The notes below the pieces were generated by a model. That model saw only the letters and a list, made by a program, of their open reading frames with translations. It did no database searches and was not told the origin of the DNA. A stretch of DNA of 64,000 nucleotides from an uncultured Spirochaetota bacterium (GTDB taxonomy: Bacteria; Spirochaetota; Spirochaetia; SZUA-6; Fen-1364). Position 1 is the stretch's first letter. Every line of letters starts with the position of its first letter. Below are positions 19,606-33,240 of the stretch, piece by piece. The translations under genes and the position numbers were made by a program. The stretch lies in assembly GCA_963781885.1 (NCBI GenBank), contig CAWAHW010000004.1:512001-576000 (forward strand), in the 5' to 3' direction.

Positions 19606-21030
19606 ATGGCAATCGGCAAGACTCCGAAGGAGATCGTCTCCTTCATCTCGACGCAGAAAGTGGAGGTCGTCGACCTGCGCTTCATGGACTTCCCCGGGCT
19701 CTGGCAGCATTTCTCCGTCCCCGCGCGCGAGCTCACCGAGGAGGTCTTCGAAAAGGGTCTCGGCTTCGATGGATCGAGCATCAGGGGCTGGCAGGCGATC
19801 AACGAGTCCGACATGCTCGTGAAGCCGGTGGCGGACACGGCATTCATCGATCCGTTCCTCGCGGCGAAGACCCTCGTCGTGATCTGCAATATCTGCGACC
19901 CTCTCACCGGTGAAGACTACACGCGCGACCCGCGGAACATTTCCCGCAAGGCGGAGGCCTTCCTCAAGGGCACGGGGCTTGCCGACATCCCCTACTTCGG
20001 CCCCGAATGCGAGTTCTTCGTGTTCGACGACATCCGCTACGACCAGAACGAGCACGAGGGCTACTACCACATCGACTCCGTGGAAGGCCGCTGGAACACG
20101 GGGCGCAAAGAGGACCCCAACCTCGGCTACAAGATCCGCTACAAGGAAGGCTACTTCCCCGTCCCGCCGAACGACACGCTGCAGGACATCCGATCCGAGA
20201 TGATGCTCACGCTGGAGTCCATCGGCATCCCCATCGAGGCACAGCACCACGAGGTGGCCACCGGCGGCCAGTGCGAGATCGACATGCGCTTCAACAACCT
20301 GATCACGATGGCCGACAACGTTTTGAAATACAAGTACATCGTGAAGAACACGGCCAAGAAGCACAACAAGGTCGTCACCTTCATGCCCAAACCGCTGTTC
20401 GGCGACAACGGCAGCGGCATGCACGTCCACATGTCCTTCTGGAAGGACGGCAAGAACCTGTTCGCCGGCGACGGGTACGCGGGGCTCTCCCAGATGGCGC
20501 TCCACGCCATCGGCGGGCTCCTGAAGCACGCGCCGTCCCTCCTCGCGTTCGCCACGCCGACGACGAACAGCTTCAAGCGCCTGGTGCCGGGCTTCGAGGC
20601 GCCGGTGAACCTCGCCTATTCGCGCCGGAACAGGAGCGCATCCATCCGCATCCCGATGTACTCGCCGTCGCCCAAGGCGAAGAGGCTGGAGTTCCGCTGC
20701 CCGGATCCGAGCTGCAACCCCTACCTCACCTTCTCCGCAATGCTCATGGCGGCGGTGGACGGCATCCAGAACAAGATCGACCCGGGACAGCCCCTGGACA
20801 AGGACATCTACGACCTCCCGCCCGAGGAGCTCGCCGCGGTGCCGAAGACTCCGGGATCGCTCCGCGAGGTGCTCCGGTCGCTGCAGGCGGATCACGCCTA
20901 CCTCCTGAAGGGGGACGTGTTCACGACGGATGTCATCGAGACCTGGATCGACTACAAGATGAAGAACGAAGTGACGGCGCTGGATCTCCGACCGCATCCC
21001 TGGGAATACATGCTCTATTTCGATATCTGA
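19606..21030 (+). CDS. glnA: Glutamine synthetase type I (adenylylatable GSI-beta type)
   Basis: [38 protein letters not shown], adenylylation loop [11 protein letters not shown]; SD AAGGAGG. Confidence 0.97.
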
Positions 21031-21944: not shown

Positions 21945-23894
21945 TCATCGCGAAAGATTCCCCCGGATGAGGGAGACGAGCCCGGCAGGGTCGCTTTCCG
22001 CCAGCCGTGACAACACCCTTTTCCAGCGATAGGCGAAGCTCCCCTGCTCCTGGTCGGGAAGGTGCGCGAACAGCGTGTCGAATGCCTTGCGACGGCGCAC
22101 GTAGTCTTCCTGGAGACGCCGCAGCCTCTCCTCCAGGGTACCGAGGTAGACGCTGGTGAAGCCCGCGACGTCCGGCAGGAAGTCCGCCCTCCGGCGCACG
22201 GGGAGCGCGTAGGACGGGGCGAACTCCTCCAGGGGGCTTGCGTAGTCGTTGAAAGCCCCCGTATGGTCGGCGAGCACGATGTCGGCGGGCATTCCCGCCT
22301 CATCGAACACCATCACCTCGTCACCGTCGTCAAAGAGAGGACTGCCCCGCGCGTCGCAGCGGCCGACGACGATATTCGGCGCAGCCGCGCTCCCCAGCAG
22401 CCGCGCGAACTCCCGGGCGAAAACCTCCGATTCGAATCTGCGGGGTGGGAGCTTGTCGGTTGCCGTGCCGCGGATGTAGGCGCGCTCGAAGTACGGCGTC
22501 CAGATCGGGAAGGCGCCGCCCTCGCGCGTTTCATAGCGCTCGCTGATCCGCCGGGCCGCGATGCGGGCAGGAAGGTTCACGCCGAGCTGCCGGCAGCCAA
22601 GGCGCCGGTCCAGGATGTATTCCGTGTACTCCTCCGCCCTGATCATTGCATCCAGGAGACCGTCGCCCCGCTCGAGGTATTCCCGCACCCCCTGCTTCTG
22701 CATGCGGATGATGGACACGATCTCTTCGGGACTCTGCCGCTGTTTCAGCACCGCAACATACACGTCACGCCGCCCCCCCATGGCCGGTCTGCGGGACAGT
22801 GAGCTCACCACCCGACCGATATTCACGTGCTCCAGGTCCCCGTACTCGCGCACAAAATTGAAGATGAGCTTCCGCGGTTTCTCATCCGAAAGCCGGGCAA
22901 GCTCGGGGTCGGCGCTTCCGGTCGCCTGCTCCATGACGGGATCGAAGATGATCTCCCCCTGCTCGAAGCGGCCCCCGGGAAGCCATTCGATCTGGAGGAA
23001 GAACTCGGGGCTCAGGCCGAGCAGCGGCTCCTCCGCGGCCTGCTCGTCCTCGCGGCCCAGGAGCGCGCTTGCCATGCGGTTCCGCCATTCTATTGCATCG
23101 GGATCATCGCGGCGCAGCTCGGGTTTCACGCGGGAGACGAACAGCGCGGCCAGGTCCTCCCACGCCCGACGCAGCCCGGCGGGATCGAGGGAGCCCCAGT
23201 CCGGCCGCGCGAGATCGGCGCGTGGAATCCCCGTTCCCGGTGGAAAGAATGCGAGCTCGGGATAACCGGCGGCATTCCGCCTGCCGGCAAAATCGACGAT
23301 CTCCAAGAGCTGCGCGCGCAGGGACGCGTCGTCCAGGAGACCCAGCTCCTCGAAGCCCTGGCAGGTGAGATAGCGCACGCCCGTTGCAAGCCCGTAGTAG
23401 TAGATCTCGCGGCCGCCAATGCCGATCCGCGCGGATTCGATCAGCGCGCGCATCTCATCCGGTGTCTTGGGCAGGGGCGTGACGCGCCACAATTCGCCCC
23501 GCTCCCGGATGGCATCACGCACCCGCGCGTTGAGAACCCCGAGGAAATGGATCCTGTGCTTCGGCAGGAGCCGCTGGAGCATCTCGTCGGCCTGGAACGC
23601 CAGCGGCATTGCAAGCGGATCGGGTCGGATCAGGACCGCGTCGCGCGCGACGATCAGATCGACCGCGGCCTGCCATTCGAGATCCATCTCGGGCGGGCTG
23701 AGATCGGCAAGCCCCGCGCGGCGCCGCTCCGCGGCATACCAGTCGACGAATGCGTTGCGCTGCATCACGTGGATGCCCGGAAGCGTTACCAGGAGATCGT
23801 GGCGGGGAAATGCCGTCGCGATCCGCGGCGGGGATTTTCCGGTCGCAGCGGCGGCAAAAAGCGGCTCCCCGAGGAAGGTGATGGCAGCGCTCAT
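21945..23894 (-). CDS. Uncharacterised 649-aa protein with putative C-terminal protein-kinase-like domain
   Basis: Long ORF 7 bp downstream of the UroD-like gene; kinase-like motif order (see findings). The function is inference. Confidence 0.7.
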   Translation of the reverse strand: MSAAITFLGEPLFAAAATGKSPPRIATAFPRHDLLVTLPGIHVMQRNAFVDWYAAERRRAGLADLSPPEMDLEWQAAVDLIVARDAVLIRPDPLAMPLAFQADEMLQRLLPKHRIHFLGVLNARVRDAIRERGELWRVTPLPKTPDEMRALIESARIGIGGREIYYYGLATGVRYLTCQGFEELGLLDDASLRAQLLEIVDFAGRRNAAGYPELAFFPPGTGIPRADLARPDWGSLDPAGLRRAWEDLAALFVSRVKPELRRDDPDAIEWRNRMASALLGREDEQAAEEPLLGLSPEFFLQIEWLPGGRFEQGEIIFDPVMEQATGSADPELARLSDEKPRKLIFNFVREYGDLEHVNIGRVVSSLSRRPAMGGRRDVYVAVLKQRQSPEEIVSIIRMQKQGVREYLERGDGLLDAMIRAEEYTEYILDRRLGCRQLGVNLPARIAARRISERYETREGGAFPIWTPYFERAYIRGTATDKLPPRRFESEVFAREFARLLGSAAAPNIVVGRCDARGSPLFDDGDEVMVFDEAGMPADIVLADHTGAFNDYASPLEEFAPSYALPVRRRADFLPDVAGFTSVYLGTLEERLRRLQEDYVRRRKAFDTLFAHLPDQEQGSFAYRWKRVLSRLAESDPAGLVSLIRGNLSR

Positions 23895-23901
23895 GTCCGT
23901 C

Positions 23902-24955
23902 TCAGCCCGACGCGTGGCCCGTCTCGTAGAGCGCGACGATATTCTCCGGCGGGCTCACCGCCTGGATATTGTGGCAGGGAGCGAGGATGTAGCCGCCGCC
24001 CTCCCCGAGGATGCGCAGGTTGTCCTCCACCTCCCGGCGCACGTCATCGACGCTGCCGAACGGCAGCGTCCTCTGGTTGTCCACGCCGCCGTGGAAGACC
24101 AGACGTCCGCCGAAGTCGCGCTTCAGCCCTTCCCGCTCCATGCCGCCGCAGCGCCACTGGATGGGGTTGAGCACGTCGATGCCCGCCTCGATCATGTCGG
24201 GGATGATGCGCCGGATGCCGCCGTCGTTGTGATGGAACACGAAGGCGCCCGCCTGGTGGACCACGTCGAATGATGCGCTTCATGCGGGGGATGAGGAACT
24301 CGCGGATCTGCGCCGGCGACAGCATGAGATCGTCCTGCGCCCCCATGTCCTCGGCGACGTAGGAGAAGGTCACCTTGCCGGGGATTGCGTCGAATATCGC
24401 CTGGGTGTCGGCATAGGCGAGATCGAAGAGCCGGTCGAGGCACCAATGCGCGATGTCGGGCTTTTCGATCAGGTCCACGAATGCCTGCTCGTCGCCCCGA
24501 AGGTCCTTGTAGATGAGGAAAGGCTCCGAGCCGCCTCCCCTCACGGGAAACCGCCCGTGCGCCGCCACTTCCGCGGCGATGCAGGAGTAGTCCATCCAGT
24601 CGGGGCTCGGCCAGCGATAGCCCGCCTTGATATCCGCAAGGGTTTCGAAACCCGCCAGCGGATGATGAATACACTCGCGGTAGGAGCCCGTGCCATAGGA
24701 GACGCTGCGGTAGCGGCAGCCGAACGCATCGGTGTCCGGTGGAAGGGCCGGCCCGGCATAGCGCGGCTGGGCAAGGAACGGCTTGTCGATGTGCAGGCGG
24801 TCGTACATCTGCTCCACGGTGGCGCAGCCGAGATGCTTCATGAGCCGCGCGGTTGCTTCATCCGTCGCCCAGTAGTCCATCGGAACCCTGTCGGGCCTTT
24901 TCCGATTGAGGACCGCGAGCCATCTCTCCCGGGGGCTCATGGTGTCTTTTGCCAT
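23902..24955 (-). CDS. Uroporphyrinogen decarboxylase/MtaA-CmuA family protein, frameshift near 24270
   Basis: MSPRER...PDRVP, EDMGAQ, FHHNDG, FHGGVDNQ, GGYILAPCHNIQ; removing one T restores MKRIIDVVHQAG. Confidence 0.82.
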
Positions 24956-25058
24956 GAGACGATTGGGCGCCCGAGTGTGCTCCCTTGTCAACTCATCGGG
25001 CGCGAGGTGCGTGCCCCACGTGGGCGCGGACCGGCGTTTCTGCTACAATGCCGGCGCA

Positions 25059-28000
25059 ATGACAGTCTCTGCTTCGATCGCCGGCTCCGAAAAAGACCGA
25101 ACGCTCCCCGACGAGCATCGCGCGCGCATGGACGCGCGGTATTTCGTGCGCTTCACGCAGCCGGAAATCGACCGCCACGTCGAGGCCATGACGTCGCTGG
25201 GTCCCGCGCGGCCCGTCGCGCTCATCGTGGAGCCGCTGTCCGCCCACGAGGACGCGCAGGAGCTCGCCTGCACGGTCGTCGCCTTCGACCACCCCGGGGC
25301 ATTCTCCGCGATCGCCGGCATCCTCTCCTCGTTGGGCTTCGACATTCATGCAGGAGACATCTTCACGTGGCAGCCGCCGTCACGGAGCGCGCCGAAGGAT
25401 CCCGGCCTGCGGCGCCGCCGCATCGTTGACCGGTTGAGCGGCCGCGTTGCTCCCGACCAGTGGGACTCGTCCTGGCCCGCGCGCGCGGAGGAGAGGCTCC
25501 GCGAGGTGTTCGGACTCCTGGAGGCAGGCGGGGACGCCGCGGCGCGCGCGCGCCAGATCGTGAATGAAATGGCCGCACGCGCCCTGGGCCAGGGCGCCAC
25601 CGCGGCCCGCACGCTCTATCCCGTGCAGATCGAGGTGGGCAACGCGGGCGGCCGCACGCGCATGCGGGTCCTCTCGCAGGACACCCCCTTCTTCCTCTTC
25701 ACGTTTTCCACCGCCCTCACCCTCCAGGAGGTGTCGATCGAGCACGTCACCATCCGCACCGACGGGGGGCGCATCGAGGACGAGTTCGAGTTCGTCGACG
25801 CGCAGGGCAGACCCATCGAGGAGCCGGATCGCATCGACCGCATCAAGCTTTCCGTGCTCCTTACGAAGCAGTTCTCGTCGTTCCTGGAGAGCGCCCCCGA
25901 TCCTCTCGCCGCGCTCACCCGGTTCGAGCAGCTCGTGAAGGACGTGCTCGCCCGACCCCAGCAGGGACGGTGGGTGGAGCTGCTCTCCGACCAGAGCGTG
26001 CTGCGCGATCTCGCCCAGCTCCTCGGCGCGAGCACGTTCCTCTGGGAGGACTTCGTTCGCCTCCAGTACGAAGAGCTTCTCCCCATGCTCGCGCCCCACC
26101 TGGGCGGCGCGCGCTTTTCCGAGCCCCTGGAGGAGACGCCCGGGCGGCTGCGCGCGGCGCTCGCTGGCGCGGCAGACAGCGCCGATTTTGAGCGCCGCCT
26201 GAACGAGTTCAAGGACAGGGAGATCTATCTCTACGACCTGGACCACATCCTCACCACCCGGCGGGCAGCGGAATCATCCACCGGGGACGCCGCGGCCCCT
26301 GCCGCGTCATTTGAATCGGACTTCCTCCTCCTGAGCCGACGCCTGACCGCTCTTGCGGAAGCCGTCGTGGATGCCGCCGCGGCCCACGCATTCCGCGTGC
26401 TCGCCGAGCGATACGGTGAGCCGCGGACCGTCGCCGCGCTACCCGTGCGCTACGCGATACTCGGTCTGGGCAAGATGGGCGGCGCCGCCCTCGGGTATGC
26501 CTCCGACATCGAATGCCTCGTGGTCTACAGCGACAATGGGTCCACCGCGGGTCCGGAGAAGATCGAGAACCGCGAGTTTTTCGACATGATGGTCCGCGAG
26601 CTGCTCCGTCTCGTGCATGCCAAGCGCGAAGGGATATTCCACATCGACCTGCGGCTGCGCCCCTATGGGGCAGCGGGTCCGCTGGGATGCAGCCTGGAAA
26701 GCTTCTGCACGTACTACGCGCGGGGCGGCCCGGCGCACTCCTACGAAAGGCTTTCCCTCGTGCGCCTGCGCGCCATCGGCGGCGACCGGACATTCGGCAG
26801 CCAGATCGAGCGCCTGCGCGACGAGATGGTCTACTCGGCGGAGAGCATCGACCTCACCGCGCTGCGGGCGCTGCGGGCGCGGCAGGTGCAGGAAAAGACG
26901 GAACCCGGCCGGCTCAACGCGAAGTTCAGCCCCGGCGCGCTCGTCGACCTGGAATACGCCGTGCAGATCCTCCAGGTGATCCATGGCGCAACGGAGCGCC
27001 GGCTGCGCACGCCGCGCATCCACGAGGCGCTGGACGCCCTTGCCTCCATCGGCGTCGTTGAAAAGACGGAAGCGATCGAGCTGGTGGCCGCGTACCGCTT
27101 CTTCCGCCGGCTCATCAACGGCCTGCGCATGCTCCGCGGCTCCGCGCGCGACCTGGTGATCCCCGTTCTCGATTCCGACGAGTACCTCCATCTGGCGCGC
27201 CGCATGGGCTATGCTGGCGCGCCGGCCCTCACCCCCGCGCAGAAGCTGCACCTGGACTTCGAGACGAGCACGGCGGGGGTGCGCGCCTTCGTGGAGCGCC
27301 ACTTCGGCAGGGACAGCCTGCCCGGCGCGCCCGTGGTGACGGTGGCGGACCTGATCCTCTCCGATGCGATTTCCCCGGCCCTTTGCGCGCGCACGCTGGA
27401 GGAGCGGGGTTTCCGCGAGCCTGCCCGCGCGCTGCTCAACCTCCGGCACATCCGCGGCGAAGGGCGCACGCTTTTCGCGCGGCTTGCGATACTCGCCTGC
27501 GACATGCTGTCGCATCGCCCCGACCCCGACATGGCGCTCAACAACTGGGAGCGCTTTCTTCACGCGCTGCCCGATCCGCAGGCGCACCTGCAGGAGATGC
27601 TGTCGCAGCCGATGCGGCTGGAAATCCTGCTCAGCATCTTCTCCGCGAGCCAGTTCCTCGCCGACACGCTTGTGCGGGAACCGGCCCTGCTTGATTTCAT
27701 CGGCAGCGCGGAAGCCCTCCACGCGCCCCGCGCGAGCGCGGCGGTGGCCGCGGAGCTTGCCGCGATTTCCGCGCGCTGCGCCGACCGGGAGCAGTGGCGC
27801 GACGCGCTGCGTCGCTACCGGCGCCGCGAAATTCTCCGCATCGGCGCGCGCGATATCTGCCTTGGCGTCGCTACGCAGAAGATCATGGAAGAGCTCTCCG
27901 ATCTTGCCAACGGCGTCATCGAGGCGGCGCTCGTTCGGCTCCGGGCGTCGGCGCGCGGGGAGTCCGGTGGAATCAAGGGCTTCTGCATCGTCGCGTTCGG

Positions 28001-28836
28001 AAAGCTCGGCGCGCGGGAGCTGAATTACAGCTCGGACATCGACCTGCTCGCGCTGTGCACCGCGGACGGCACGTCCGATCCCGAAGAGGCGGCCACCCGG
28101 CTCATGGCGGACCTGCGCGCGGACCTCTCCTCCCACACGGTTGAAGGGTACGCCTACCGGGTGGACCTGCGCTTGCGTCCTTACGGCAGCTCGGGACAGC
28201 TCGTCTTCACGCTCCCGGGCCTCCTGGAATACTACACGACGAACGCGGCGCTGTGGGAGCTGCAGGCCCTGCTCAAAGCGCGCCCCGTTGCGGGCGACCT
28301 TGACGTCGGTGCGGCATTTCTCGAATCCGTGCGGCCAATGCTCGCCGCCCGGCACGACCCCGTCCAGGTGAGCCTCACGATCGACCGTCTCCGCCGGGAG
28401 GCGGTGCGCAGCCTTGCCCGCAGCATCCTCGCCACGCTGGACATCAAGACGGGTCTCGGCGGGCTGCGCGACGTCGAGTTCCTGGTCCAGGGCCTGCAGC
28501 TCGTCAATGCCCACGCCCGGCCCGAGCTCCTGTGCGGCGGCACGCTTCCCGCGCTGGAAGCCCTGGCAAAGGCAGGAATCCTGCCGTCCGATACCGCGGA
28601 CCAGCTCACGCGGGATTACATCTTCCTGCGACGGGTCGAGCATTTCCTGCAGATCTACCGAGGATCGCCAGACGCACAGCCTTCCGCAAGACCCTGCACA
28701 GCTGCGGGCGCTGGCCCGGCTCATGCTCGGCAGCACTGCCACGGGCGACCAGCTCCTCGCCGCGCTCTCTGACAGGTTCACGAGGATACGCGCCGTCTAC
28801 CAGGAGTTCCTTCGGCCGCCGGCGCAGGAGCCGTGA
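25059..28836 (+). CDS. glnE: Glutamine synthetase adenylyltransferase with N-terminal tandem ACT domains, frameshift near 28659
   Basis: Two GlnE NT domains (LGKMGGAALGYASDIE...DLRLRPYG; FGKLGARELNYSSDID...DLRLRPYG); removing one C restores LQIYEDRQTHSLP and ends at TGA 28836. Confidence 0.9.
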
Positions 28837-28854: not shown

Positions 28855-30408
28855 CTACCGCAGCGGCCCGACCGCCTCGTTCACCCGGTCGATGATGGTG
28901 CCGGCCTTCAAGAGCGCGAGCATTGCCTCGATGTCGCGCGAGAGCTCCCGGTCCCGGTCGAGGACGGGTATCTTCTCCCGGCACGTCCTGTATGCAGCCT
29001 CGGTGCCGCGCCCCGGTCTTCCCTTCGTGAGCAGGTCCACCGCCTGGCATCCGCAGAGAAGCTCGATGGCAAGGACCGCCTCGGCGTTCGCGATGACGGT
29101 CCTGCACTTGCGCGCCGCGATCGTGCCCATGCTCACGTGGTCTTCCTTGTTCGCGGAGGTGGGGATGGAATCGACCGAGGCCGGGTGGCAGAGCACCTTG
29201 TTCTCCGAGACGAGCGCGGCGGCGGTGTACTGCGCGATCATGAAACCCGAGTTCACGCCGGAATCGTTCACGAGGAAAGCCGGCAGCCCGCTGAGCTGCG
29301 GGTTCACGAGCCTCTCGATCCGGCGCTCGGAAATGTCGGCGAGCTCCGCCGCGGCCATGCAGAGATAGTCGGCGGCGAGCGCGAGCGGCTGGCCGTGGAA
29401 GTTCCCGCCGAGCAGGAACTCACCGGTCTCGGGGAAGATGAGAGGATTCGTGGTGGCGGAATCCAGCTCGATCTCGACCACCCTGCGGACATGCGCGACA
29501 GCGTCGCGGCTTGCCCCGTGCACCTGCGGGGAGCAGCGCAGCGTGTAGGCGTCCTGTATCCTGCCGCAGTCCTTGTGGGACGACATGATCGCGCTGTCCC
29601 GCGTGATGCGGTACATGTTGTCCGCTGCCGCGATCTGGCCGGGGTGCGGGCGCGCGGCGTGGATGCGCGGGTCGAACTCCACGTTGGTGCCCATGAGCAC
29701 CTCCAGGCTGATGGAGGAGGCGATGTCCGCGGTGCGCATGAGCCTTTCCGCGTCGTGCACGGCAATGGCCGCGATCCCGGCCATCACCTGCGTACCGTTG
29801 ATGAGGGCAAGACCCTCCCCCGCGTCCAGCACGATGGGGCGCAGCCCCGCTGCCGCAAGCGCCTCCGCGCCGGTCATGCGCCGTCCCTTGAAACAGGCAT
29901 CGCCTTTGCCGATGAGCACCAGCGCGAGATGCGCCATGGGAGCAAGGTCTCCGCTTGCCCCGACGGACCCTTTCTCCGGCACGACAGGCGCGACGCCGGC
30001 GTTCAGAAGGTCCCGCAGCGCCTCCAGCGTCTCCCCGCGCAGCCCCGCGCGGCCGTGGGCGAGGTCCTGCACGCGCACCGCCATGGTGGCCCGCACGACC
30101 TCCTCCGCGAGCGGATCACCGACGCCCGCGGCATGGCTCATGAGGATGTTCTCCTGAAGCGCGCGCGTCTGCGCGGGCGGTATCGCCACGTCGCACAGCG
30201 CGCCGAAACCCGTTGTGACGCCGTAGACGGCGCGCCGCTCGGCGACCCATTTCTCCACGAGAGCGCGCGCCGCGCGGACCCGGCTCATGGCCTCGTCGGC
30301 GATCTGCACGCGCGCGCCGTGCCGCGCCACGGCGACCAGATCCTCAATCGAAAGAGGGCCGTCGCCCATTGTCACGGCCGCCGTCTGCGGCCGGGCCTTG
30401 ACGCTCAT
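28855..30408 (-). CDS. hutH: Histidine ammonia-lyase
   Basis: VYGVTTGFG, MIO motif GSVGASGDL, QDAYTLRC, GGNFHG, EDHVSMG. Confidence 0.96.
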   Translation of the reverse strand: MSVKARPQTAAVTMGDGPLSIEDLVAVARHGARVQIADEAMSRVRAARALVEKWVAERRAVYGVTTGFGALCDVAIPPAQTRALQENILMSHAAGVGDPLAEEVVRATMAVRVQDLAHGRAGLRGETLEALRDLLNAGVAPVVPEKGSVGASGDLAPMAHLALVLIGKGDACFKGRRMTGAEALAAAGLRPIVLDAGEGLALINGTQVMAGIAAIAVHDAERLMRTADIASSISLEVLMGTNVEFDPRIHAARPHPGQIAAADNMYRITRDSAIMSSHKDCGRIQDAYTLRCSPQVHGASRDAVAHVRRVVEIELDSATTNPLIFPETGEFLLGGNFHGQPLALAADYLCMAAAELADISERRIERLVNPQLSGLPAFLVNDSGVNSGFMIAQYTAAALVSENKVLCHPASVDSIPTSANKEDHVSMGTIAARKCRTVIANAEAVLAIELLCGCQAVDLLTKGRPGRGTEAAYRTCREKIPVLDRDRELSRDIEAMLALLKAGTIIDRVNEAVGPLR

Positions 30409-31046: not shown

Positions 31047-32327
31047 GTTCCTTCCCTTTCATCCAAAGCCCGGCCGCCGCGCGCGGCCAGCGCGCCGCCC
31101 TTGTAGACATCGACGACCGGTGAGATTCCCGCGCGGAATGCAAGGACCGCGGGCGATTCCCCGTCGAGGAGGAGAAAATCGGCCGCCTTCCCGGGGGTGA
31201 GACTCCCCGCCTCGCGCCCCCTCCCGACGGCATATGCTGCATTCAAGGTGGAGGCAGCGAGCGCCTCGTTCACCGAAAGGCCCATCATCATCACGGAAAG
31301 CCCGAACGCAAAGGGCATCGACTCGACGCAGGACGAGCCAGGGTTGCAGTCCGTGGCGATCGCCACGGGCAGCCCGGTTTCGATCATCCTGCGCGCGCGG
31401 GCAAACGGCCGCCGCATGCTGAATGCGGTCACCGGCAGGAGCACCGCGACGGAACCCGCTGTTGCCAGGGCGCGAATACCCTCGTCGGAGGCGGCCAGGA
31501 GATGGTCCGCCGATGCCGCGCAAAGCGATGCGGCCAGCAGCGCGCCCCCATGTCTCGTGGAGCTCGTCGGCATGCATCTTCACACCCATGCCCGCTGACG
31601 CCGCGGCCTCCAGGATCTTCCGCGACTGCTCCGGACTGAAGACCCCCTGCTCGCAGAAGACGTCGCAGAAAAGGGCCCCCGCGCGGCGGGCTTCGGGAAG
31701 CATGGCGATCACCGCCTCAACGTAGTCATCGGGCCTGCCCTCGAACTCGGGAGGCACCGCGTGCGCCGCCATGAACGTCGGGATGACTGAAAGGGCCGTT
31801 TCCTCTCCCAGCCTGCGGATCGCGGCGAGCTGTTTCAGCTCGTTGTCCACGTCCAGGCCATAGCCGGTTTTAATTTCGATGGTGGTCGTGCCGAGGGAAA
31901 GCGCCGACAGCGCCCGTCGGCGCGTTGCCGCGTACAGCTCCGCAGGCGCGGCGGCGCGCACCGCTGCCACGGAGGAGAGTATGCCCCCTCCCTTCCTCAA
32001 TATATCGAGGTAGTCCGCCCCTTCCAGCCTCTGGCTGAACTCCGATTCCCGCGGCCGGGTGAAGCAGAGATGGGTGTGCGGATCGACAAAGCCGGGAACC
32101 ATGCACAAGCCGCGGCAATCGGTCTCCGACTCCAGCGTGCGCCGGCCGGGGTCGCCGAGCGCGCCGAGCACTGCCCCCTCATCGCCCACGGTGACAATGC
32201 GCCCGTCCCGGCACAGGAGGGCCCCCGGGATGTACGCGGCCACCTCCGCCTGTGCACGGCCTGCCGCGGCTTTGCCAGGGTCCCCGGGCGTGTAGATCCT
32301 CGCATTGCGGAAGAGCCTGAGACCCAT
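31043..32327 (-). CDS. hutI: Imidazolonepropionase, frameshift near 31550
   Basis: PGFVDPHTH, GGGILSSV, EIKTGYGL, DVFCE, HADEL, then SADHL and ATDCNPG in the shifted frame. Confidence 0.9.
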
Positions 32328-32331
32328 GGCG

Positions 32332-33240
32332 CTAGCCCTGCATGTCCAGGAGGCGCAGGTCGAGCACCTGCGCGTCGTCGAATCCCGCGATCTGGAGGCA
32401 ATGCGTGGCGGATGCAAGAAGCGCGGCGGCGGGAACCATCCCGTACACCTCGGTCTCCCGCACCTTCACACCCTGCTCGTGCGCTTTCTCACGCACCGCC
32501 TGGAGCACGACGTGCAGCGGGGATGCGGCGAAATCGGTGACGTTGATGCTCACCTGGACGATGCCCTTCTCCTTCAAGGCAATGCCTACGGCTTTCACGC
32601 CGGGGAGCCCGCCGCCAGAGGCGCGTATCGCCCGCGCGATGGAGCGCGCGATCGCCAGGTCGCTGCTTTCAAGATTGACGTTGAAGGCAACGAGAAAACG
32701 GCGCGCTCCGATGGCTGTCGCCCCGGCGCTCGGATGAATGCGGGGACCGCCCACGTCGGGCTCCCTCCCAGGATCTTCGCATTCCCGCAGCAGTGCCTCG
32801 AACTGGCCCCGTCTCACGTCTTCAAGCTTCCACCGGTCGGGCCGGCGCGCGGCGGCCTCGTAGAAGTAGACCGGCACGCCCGTTGCCTTCACGAAAGAGT
32901 CGGCGAACGTGCGTGCAAGCTCGACGCACGCCTCCATGGAAATGCCGCGCACGGGCACGAAGGGGATCACGTCCACCGCGCCCATCCGGGGGTGCTCCCC
33001 GGTGTGCGTGCGCAGGTCGATGGCCGCGACGGCGACCTTTGCCGATGCGATCAACGCGGCCTGGAGCGGCTCCGGCTCACCGACGAGACTCACGACCAGC
33101 CTGTTGTGGTCGGGATCGGCGCGGCGATCCAGCAGGTAGACGCCCGGTGCGCCCTGAAACGGGGCAACCAGCGCGGCGATGACCTCCTGCCGCCGGCCCT
33201 CGCTGTAATTGGGGACGCATTCGACCAGCTGCCTGTTCAC
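32332..33240 (-). CDS. ftcD: Glutamate formimidoyltransferase
   Basis: [40 protein letters not shown]. Confidence 0.94.

Follow-up and report, generated by a model that had tools for sequence, protein, structure and literature searches.

The 64,000-nucleotide stretch analyzed here (hereafter, the window; positions 512,001 to 576,000 of contig CAWAHW010000004.1, assembly GCA_963781885.1, from an uncultured Spirochaetota bacterium) encodes a conserved, widespread, and uncharacterized variant of GlnE, the adenylyltransferase of glutamine synthetase (GS). Its N-terminal ~280 residues were confirmed to form a tandem ACT module of the GlnD type, fused in frame to the GlnE domains, as an earlier reading of the DNA without database searches (the sequence-only reading) had proposed. 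The two catalytic halves that follow are probably arranged as an adenylylating (AT) half and then an adenylyl-removing (AR) half, as judged from a phylogenetic tree, motifs, and profile scores. The protein would thus be a rearranged bifunctional GlnE, adding AMP to GS and removing it, built from a GlnD-derived lead-in helix, two ACT domains, an AT half, and an AR half. We give about even chances to the overall reading, in which the ACT pair of this rearranged enzyme acts as a glutamine-type allosteric sensor. The gene and its parts are as follows.

25059..28772, + strand: glnE as assembled, 1237 amino acids (aa) from the ATG at 25059, with the last 37 residues out of frame
25104..25211, + strand: N-terminal helical lead-in, residues 16–51, matching the GlnD linker before ACT1 (TIGR01693 alignment from position 622)
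25215..25592, + strand: ACT1, residues 53–178, with the best Pfam ACT stretch at residues 73–98 and a D77-H-P-G loop after the first core strand
25626..25886, + strand: ACT2, residues 190–276, with an invariant D208-T-P-F-F-L loop after the first core strand
25980..27344, + strand: first catalytic half, residues 308–762, clustering with the AT halves, which are C-terminal in canonical GlnE
27597..28658, + strand: second catalytic half, residues 847–1200, clustering with the AR halves, which are N-terminal in canonical GlnE

The N-terminal module was identified as GlnD-like by the NCBIfam profile of GlnD, TIGR01693, which aligned positions 622–843 of 850 with residues 19–264 (E 5.5e-23; 81.1 bits for the whole protein) and recovered the same stretch in a genome search (E 1.1e-11). 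These positions correspond to the C-terminal ACT pair of GlnD, in agreement with the likeness claimed by the sequence-only reading. Since only this N-terminal module matched and the score lay far below the cut-off of 519.4 bits, the window protein is not a GlnD. The Pfam ACT profile PF01842 reached 25.9 bits (E 8.2e-6), just under its gathering cut-off of 27, and precomputed PF01842 matches were present on many homologues. The AlphaFold2 model of residues 1–300, built with 50 homologues (predicted local distance difference test [pLDDT] 90.7; predicted template modeling score [pTM] 0.89), showed two strand-helix-strand-strand-helix units, i.e., the ACT fold of strand-helix-strand-strand-helix(-strand) in tandem. 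The lead-in was modeled as helices 16–23, 26–31, and 34–45, in which H20, R23, Y28, and F32 are invariant. ACT1 comprised strands 53–59, 68–76, 94–103, and 121–130 and helices 81–91 and 139–178, with D77, F82, G87, G93, and G99 invariant, and ACT2 comprised strands 190–195, 200–207, 226–235, and 238–246 and helices 212–222 and 256–276. Across 51 sequences, 34 positions of residues 1–300 were invariant, including the ligand-loop positions D77-x-P-G and D208-T-P, and the ACT module was conserved as strongly as the catalytic cores.

In structural comparisons, the best matches of the model are tandem-ACT regulators. VIA-align placed aspartate kinase first (3l76_B; Z 10.5, root mean square deviation [rmsd] 5.3, 186 aligned residues), a match that held in both the 1–300 and 1–1200 models (Z 10.5–10.8), followed by the regulatory domains of threonine deaminase (9d2s, Z 7.9; 8y1j, Z 7.1), CASTOR2 (9kpb, Z 6.4), and CASTOR1 (Z 5.9). 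Single ACT domains matched either repeat, several at Z 3.6–5.7 and rmsd 1.8–2.7; residues 198–272, for example, matched those of PGDH (1ygy, Z 3.9) and Rel (6lxg, Z 3.7). Foldseek agreed weakly, with four matches at E ≤ 0.001, the best being aspartate kinase and the large glutamate dehydrogenase of M. smegmatis, whose ACT-like N-terminal region gave E 2e-5 and, in the structural comparison of the 1200-residue model, Z 9.2. Meganucleases, which made up one of these four matches and many weaker ones, were set aside as noise (TM ~0.13). A chance likeness of the N-terminus to ACT domains was ruled out by the profile E-value of 5.5e-23, the fold, and the conservation.

The module and the GlnE domains share one reading frame. 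The open frame 24906–28772 (+) contains both peptides quoted in the sequence-only reading, and the fusion that it had described was upheld by the Pfam matches and the AlphaFold2 fold as well. The start codon of glnE is likely the ATG at 25059, because the upstream alternatives (TTG at 24906 and ATG at 24939) overlap the 5' end of a divergent (-) gene starting at ~24955, and because homologue alignments begin at about residue 13; a scan of 24700–25200 for a sigma-70-type promoter found none. Pfam profiles GlnE (PF03710; 311 bits, cut-off 24) and GlnD_UR_UTase (PF08335; 118.9 bits, cut-off 21) each matched two stretches, giving the GlnE architecture, in which a GlnD_UR_UTase helical domain comes after each of the two nucleotidyltransferase domains. 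A profile search of the genome detected this single GlnE, with both PF03710 and PF08335. The AlphaFold2 model of residues 1–1200 had a pLDDT of 84.9 and a pTM of 0.77. An antisense open reading frame (ORF) of 780 aa inside glnE, at 26439–28781 (-), was treated as a high-GC artefact.

We then examined the distribution of this architecture. A word-indexed search with residues 1–300 returned 198 clusters at E ≤ 0.001, and among the matches listed, the clusters were nearly all 1,220–1,340 aa long with GlnE domains. A full HMMER pass over 1.84 billion representatives yielded 574 proteins at E ≤ 0.001, of which 306 passed 1e-10 and 77 passed 1e-30. In a collection with one genome per species, a pattern search gave 444 matches, 325 of which were confirmed, and locus statistics cover the best 80 of these 325 stretches. 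The 80 loci came from Spirochaetota, Deltaproteobacteria/Desulfobacterota (including the cultured NaphS2), Planctomycetota, Verrucomicrobiota, Lentisphaerae, and Kiritimatiellia. The module stood at the front of a long open frame in all 80, and the frame was at least 1,200 aa in 66; the shorter frames were cut by contig ends or by internal breaks (L028, L030, and L046).

A second arrangement emerged when 201 genomes from the window's phylum were sampled. GlnE exceeded the Pfam cut-off in 38 of these genomes, and the ACT module was matched in 21 of the 38. Six genomes (G000, G030, G051, G094, G100, and G150) encoded the N-terminal ACT form (N-form), and in 15 the ACT pair lay between the two nucleotidyltransferase domains (central form). 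NCBIfam matches illustrated the central form at L016 (residues 445–713 to GlnD positions 621–842) and L018 (residues 425–706 to positions 583–845), with GlnE halves on both sides of the ACT pair, and the representative library contained it too, with matches at about residues 510–800 of proteins near 1,240 aa. The central-form loci L015–L019 belong to genomes G139, G032, G019, G001, and G088, respectively, and the L019 protein (1602 aa) carries further extra sequence. In a tree that combined 86 N-form, 5 central, and 16 GlnD ACT modules (107 in total; GlnD loci L108, L114, and L115 were omitted, as they were not covered by the module profile), all GlnE-borne modules fell on one side and the 16 GlnD modules on the other (SH-aLRT 93). 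This unrooted tree is compatible with a single acquisition of the module followed by rearrangement. Separately, genomes of family f15 in the phylum sample encode stand-alone ORFs of ~205–230 aa that match only GlnD positions ~675–849 (e.g., G182:C3:148362-148889 and G023:C16:29475-30002); these ACT-pair ORFs recall plant ACR proteins.

Next, we considered what the ACT pair may sense. ACT domains bind many different ligands, which weighs against any particular assignment. The glutamine response of GlnD reportedly depends on its ACT domains (2010 work cited in the available part of PMC11190351); by analogy, the ACT pair of the window protein would be an allosteric small-molecule sensor, with glutamine as its most likely ligand. 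An alternative accepts the ACT pair as real and assigns it another effector (a different amino acid, 2-oxoglutarate, or a nucleotide) or a role as a docking or oligomerization surface, for example for PII or the GS dodecamer. Its structural neighbors lend this alternative some weight: the ligands of aspartate kinase, threonine deaminase, and CASTOR are Lys/Thr, Ile/Val, or Arg, and the ACT-like region of the M. smegmatis glutamate dehydrogenase also matches. Moreover, canonical GlnE, which has no ACT domain, binds glutamine, together with MgATP, through its AT half, according to the available part of one preprint (10.64898/2026.09.02.748916), which means that glutamine could bind outside the ACT pair. 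The coexistence of GlnD and PII with the family in all Desulfobacterota carriers and the two PII genes kept in the window's genome, both described below, point in the same direction. Nevertheless, by sequence the module is most closely related to GlnD C-termini, lead-in helices included, the reported role of the GlnD ACT domains fits a glutamine ligand, and the two loops are invariant, as expected of a binding site. We consider the alternative of another effector or a docking surface rather unlikely.

The sequence-only reading had also suggested that the fusion could bypass the GlnD–PII relay and had pointed to the presence of glnD and glnB as a check. A TIGR01693 search of the 92.55%-complete assembly (less 16,000 bases) did not find GlnD; the highest-scoring matches, at 44.1 bits for the ACT region of GlnE itself and 38.7 bits for an HD protein, stayed below the cut-off of 519. 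Two PII genes are present, each directly after amtB (C1:75864-76178 and C2:428990-429307; L007 and L008). By eye, one PII keeps a Tyr at the T-loop position (RGTSY), which we take to correspond to Tyr51 of the E. coli protein, and the other has Glu (RGVKE). Among genomes of the phylum sample, a full-length GlnD match was found in 0 of 6 N-form carriers, 4 of 15 central-form carriers, and 9 of 17 genomes with canonical GlnE. Among all carrier genomes from other records, 12 of 40 had such a match, namely all 12 Deltaproteobacteria/Desulfo- carriers and none of the remaining 28 (14 spirochaetes, 7 of the Planctomycetes–Verrucomicrobia–Chlamydiae [PVC] group, and 7 further genomes); the carrier genomes are related, and these counts are not independent. 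The fusion accompanies the absence of GlnD in two lineages and coexists with GlnD in a third.

These data left the bypass partly standing: the absence of GlnD from this genome and from the 6 and 28 carriers speaks for it, and several points weigh against it. Because GlnD occurs in 12 of 12 Desulfobacterota and in 4 of 15 central-form carriers, the ACT module is not a general replacement for GlnD. Nor is the absence of GlnD special to ACT-carrying GlnE, because genomes of family f42 in the phylum sample (G076, G086, G103, G146, and G191) and G021 encode a GlnE of canonical length (903–1021 aa) with no ACT module and had no GlnD match; GlnD-independent control of GlnE may be wider in the phylum. 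The incompleteness of the assembly, the retention of two PII genes, and the ability of canonical GlnE to bind glutamine without an ACT domain count on the same side. In some Desulfobacterota, glnD and a PII gene adjoin glnA and glnE (L046 and L054). Desulfobacterota with ACT-GlnE often have two full-length GlnD paralogues 2–15 kb apart on one contig, near glnA–glnE (G203:C667 24266-26809 and 38849-41398; G202:C2; G204:C23; G227:C225; G237:C23; G240:C130).

With these points in mind, we propose a mechanism in which the ACT pair would act on the adjoining AT half. At high glutamine, it would shift the enzyme toward adenylylation, and thereby inactivation, of GS; at low glutamine, it would release the AR activity. 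As PII cannot be uridylylated by GlnD here, the ACT pair would supply the signal that is given by PII-UMP in E. coli, and an unmodified GlnK-type PII may still add information on 2-oxoglutarate and ATP. We put glutamine sensing by the ACT pair, together with its substitution for GlnD, at an even chance at best and perhaps slightly less. The fullest version, in which the enterobacterial relay (glutamine sensing by GlnD, signal transfer by PII, action on GS by GlnE) is collapsed into one polypeptide, a circularly permuted GlnE whose GlnD-derived ACT pair is joined to the AT half, reads glutamine directly, and sets the AT/AR balance without PII modification as the normal control of GS in GlnD-less Spirochaetota and PVC bacteria, is offered only tentatively.

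We next analyzed the order of the catalytic halves. Both halves carry the G-x-G-K-x-G-G ... D-x-[DE] motif of nucleotidyltransferases and a downstream Asp, the first as GKMGGAALGYASDIE at residues 471–485 (26469–26513) with D530 and the second as GKLGARELNYSSDID at residues 981–995 (27999–28043) with D1036. The catalytic carboxylates D483/E485/D530 and D993/D995/D1036 were invariant or nearly so in 51 sequences, with D483, I484, and E485 of the first half strictly invariant; D-x-E is permitted in the Pol-beta superfamily motif. In canonical GlnE, the C-terminal half is the adenylylating one (title of PDB entry 3k7d; available part of 10.64898/2026.09.02.748916). We constructed a tree from the 82 halves of 41 proteins (the window protein with 24 hand-picked N-form loci, 5 central, and 11 canonical). 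One branch with an SH-aLRT of 98 united the second halves of the N-form (25) with the first halves of the canonical (11) and central (5) proteins, leaving on its other side the N-form first halves (25) with the canonical (11) and central (5) second halves. On this tree, a swapped labeling of the N-form halves needed one change and a collinear labeling two.

The motifs agreed with the tree. The half after the ACT pair had a GYASDIE-type motif in 24 of the 25 N-form proteins listed, reading G-K-x-G-G-x-A-L-G-Y-A-S-D-I-E, and the corresponding central-form half read ...E-L-G-Y-A-S-D-I-E (G-Y-[AG]-S-D-x-E in 5 of 5, exactly GYASDIE in 3 of 5). The other half carried an ELN[YFI]SSDID-type motif (...E-L-N-Y-S-S-D-I-D), as do the canonical first halves of the phylum; in the alignments, the E. 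coli counterparts were ELGYSSDLD in the C-terminal domain (AT-C) and ELNFSSDID in the N-terminal domain (AT-N). The motif pattern found only the second-half motif in L011 and neither motif in L050. Profiles were also built from canonical halves, and the canonical-first minus canonical-second score difference was +56 to +138 bits for N-form second halves, as for central first halves (+74 to +106), and +12 to +53 bits for N-form first halves, which were nearer to central second halves (-16 to +23).

These results were set against an alternative in which ACT domains were simply added at the N-terminus of a collinear GlnE, its AR half first and AT half second; the sequence-only reading had pictured the fusion in this way as well. 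Two NCBIfam alignments are collinear (PRK11072, residues 426–1157 to positions 117–873 of 946; PRK14109, residues 270–961 to positions 45–709 of 1010), although profiles of internally repeated proteins tend to force such alignments, and PRK14108 placed the second half (residues 973–1201) at positions 185–420 of 986, as PRK14109 placed residues 764–1236 of relatives at positions 10–499. Other points do weigh against a swapped order. The N-form first half also scores slightly higher on the canonical-first profile, by the 12–53 bits given above; the tree came from a 'quick' search; and the structures did not tell the halves apart, as E. coli AT-N (1v4a; 147.6 bits, Z 36.3, rmsd 2.8, 369 residues aligned with 817–1200) and AT-C (3k7d; 154.6 bits, Z 36.9, rmsd 4.6) both fitted the second half best, AT-C marginally more so, with the two E. 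coli domains lying on residues 759/817–1200 of the 1200-residue model at Z ~36–37. Apart from the order of the halves, PRK11072 (424.3 bits), PRK14109 (440.9 bits), and PRK14108 (322.5 bits) matched strongly yet fell short of their equivalog cut-offs of 487, 625, and 724, a point against the overall reading. Nevertheless, the swapped bipartition of the tree and a GYASDIE-type signature that the N-form shares only with the post-ACT, C-terminal half of central-type GlnE make the collinear arrangement distinctly unlikely, and the picture of a plain addition gave way: by tree, motifs, and profile-score differences, the halves probably do not follow the E. coli-type order.

The swapped order ACT-ACT, AT, AR is therefore the one we retain as probable. 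Central-type ACT-GlnE (L015–L019) has the same ACT module with the same G-Y-[AG]-S-D-x-E-type half right after it, and it differs in that its AR half comes before the ACT pair, whereas that of the window form comes after the AT half. Because the orders are ACT-ACT/AT/AR and AR/ACT-ACT/AT, the window form would be a circular permutation of the central form, and the ACT pair appears to directly precede the adenylylating half in both. The best structural match of the AT-like half (residues 370–753) outside GlnE was the AMPylation domain of Legionella DrrA (6yx5_B; Z 19.8, 299 aligned residues).

The 3' end of glnE is interrupted in the assembly, as described by two features.

28656..28660, + strand: +1 frameshift, one extra C in 'ATCTACCGAGGA'; relative L021 reads ATCTA-CGAGGA, one C fewer
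28660..28836, + strand: genuine 3' end of glnE, ~58 codons read in the +1 frame, with the stop at 28834–28836

After ...FLQIY, the assembled frame enters 37 unrelated residues, and the next frame reads EDRQTHSLPQDP... to the stop at 28836. The family consensus continues ...FLQIYEDRQTHSLP..., corresponding to this next frame, and the frame 28372–28836 reads ...EDRQTHSLPQDPAQLRALARLM..., in agreement with the consensus of 50 homologues. The frameshift is most likely an assembly indel, because the neighboring URO-D-like gene is also frameshifted. If instead it is real, glnE is decaying and its AR half lacks a conserved C-terminal tail of ~58 residues, in which E, D, R, Q, H, L, and P are nearly invariant; the frameshift does stand in the assembly, and the public protein record of the locus (P0002, 1277 aa) is cut in the same way. 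Such decay is unlikely given that the other 1200 codons are intact and 82–89% identical to the three closest homologues, and that the similar frameshift in the conserved neighbor and the cut frames inside long contigs at related loci (L028, L030, and L046) indicate indel errors. Among contigs of sequencing run X1 (24% of sampled words), a single 156-base contig spans 28778–28933, outside the frameshift.

The presumed substrate is encoded in the same window.

19606..21030, + strand: glnA (type I GS), Pfam Gln-synt_C 439 bits, 4 kb upstream of glnE

This glnA encodes the sole GS in the genome. From the alignment offset to Salmonella GS (1f1h), Tyr441 of the product (P0122; codon 20809–20811) corresponds to approximately Tyr397, which we take to be the adenylylation site. 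The Tyr motif is necessary and not sufficient, because cyanobacterial GS has the Tyr without GlnE (3ng0 alignment). ACT-glnE is immediately preceded by glnA on the same strand in 34 of the 80 loci, from both spirochaetes and Desulfobacterota; in the window, three other genes lie between them. Considering the domains and this linkage, the window protein is very probably an ACT-carrying GlnE acting on GS.

Regarding the other neighbors, Pfam assigned no family to 21945–23894 (-), 22827–24170 (+), and other ORFs between glnA and glnE. The first of these (649 aa) has counterparts of 64–87% identity in 6 of the 80 loci, all related spirochaetes, always near glnE. The gene divergent from glnE, at 23902–24955 (-), belongs to the URO-D family by its C-terminal 120 aa (PF01208 positions 239–344); its N-terminal ~225 aa are in another frame, with the frameshift near 24265–24280, and the same gene occurs in L020 and L021. 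On the other side, a convergent histidine ammonia-lyase gene (hutH; Lyase_aromatic, 675 bits) at 28855–30408 (-) lies 19 bases past the true glnE stop and is followed by an amidohydrolase gene at 31059–32417 (-); the two may form a hut cluster.

GS adenylylation is a textbook cascade that was worked out almost entirely in Proteobacteria and Actinobacteria. In the form described here, GlnE itself carries the sensor of GlnD, at one of two positions, each of which appears to lie right before the adenylylating half. This form would provide a simple system for asking how an ACT pair switches a bifunctional nucleotidyltransferase, and it bears on the control of AR activity where PII-UMP cannot exist and on the shortening of signaling cascades by domain fusion and permutation. 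For several hundred public GlnE genes, a generic annotation hides this different architecture. Our literature searches found no paper describing a fusion of GlnE, or GS adenylyltransferase, with ACT domains, in keeping with the statement of the sequence-only reading that no characterized example was known; a survey of HEPN domains (PMC3710099) mentions, in its available text, only the helical domains of GlnD and GlnE.

Compared with E. coli GlnE (ATase; 946 aa; 1v4a and 3k7d), the window protein likewise pairs each of its two Pol-beta-type nucleotidyltransferase domains with a downstream GlnD_UR_UTase helical domain, shows 29–31% identity and Z 36–37 to both solved halves, and is linked to a Tyr-bearing type I GS. 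It differs in its extra GlnD-type ACT pair of ~280 residues, in the probable order of its halves, AT then AR, and in the replacement of D-x-D by D-x-E in the AT-like half. Furthermore, E. coli GlnE needs PII and PII-UMP made by GlnD, whereas no GlnD was detected in the window's genome. In GlnD as in the window protein, a tandem ACT is fused to a bifunctional nucleotidyltransferase acting in the nitrogen cascade, but the window protein lacks the GlnD nucleotidyltransferase and HD domains, and its ACT module is N-terminal to the catalytic part, whereas that of GlnD is C-terminal. A precedent for control of GS adenylylation without the GlnD–PII relay comes from actinobacterial GlnE: the Streptomyces coelicolor enzyme is controlled independently of PII and GlnD, according to the available part of 10.64898/2026.09.02.748916 (citing Fink 1999 and Hesketh 2002), and by description it has the canonical half order, with no ACT module reported. 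GlnD-like ACT domains also serve as glutamine-linked regulators of another enzyme in Arabidopsis ACR11 and Chlamydomonas AMA2 (available parts of PMC11190351 and PMC3173338), which are likened here by description and differ in their host enzymes and kingdoms.

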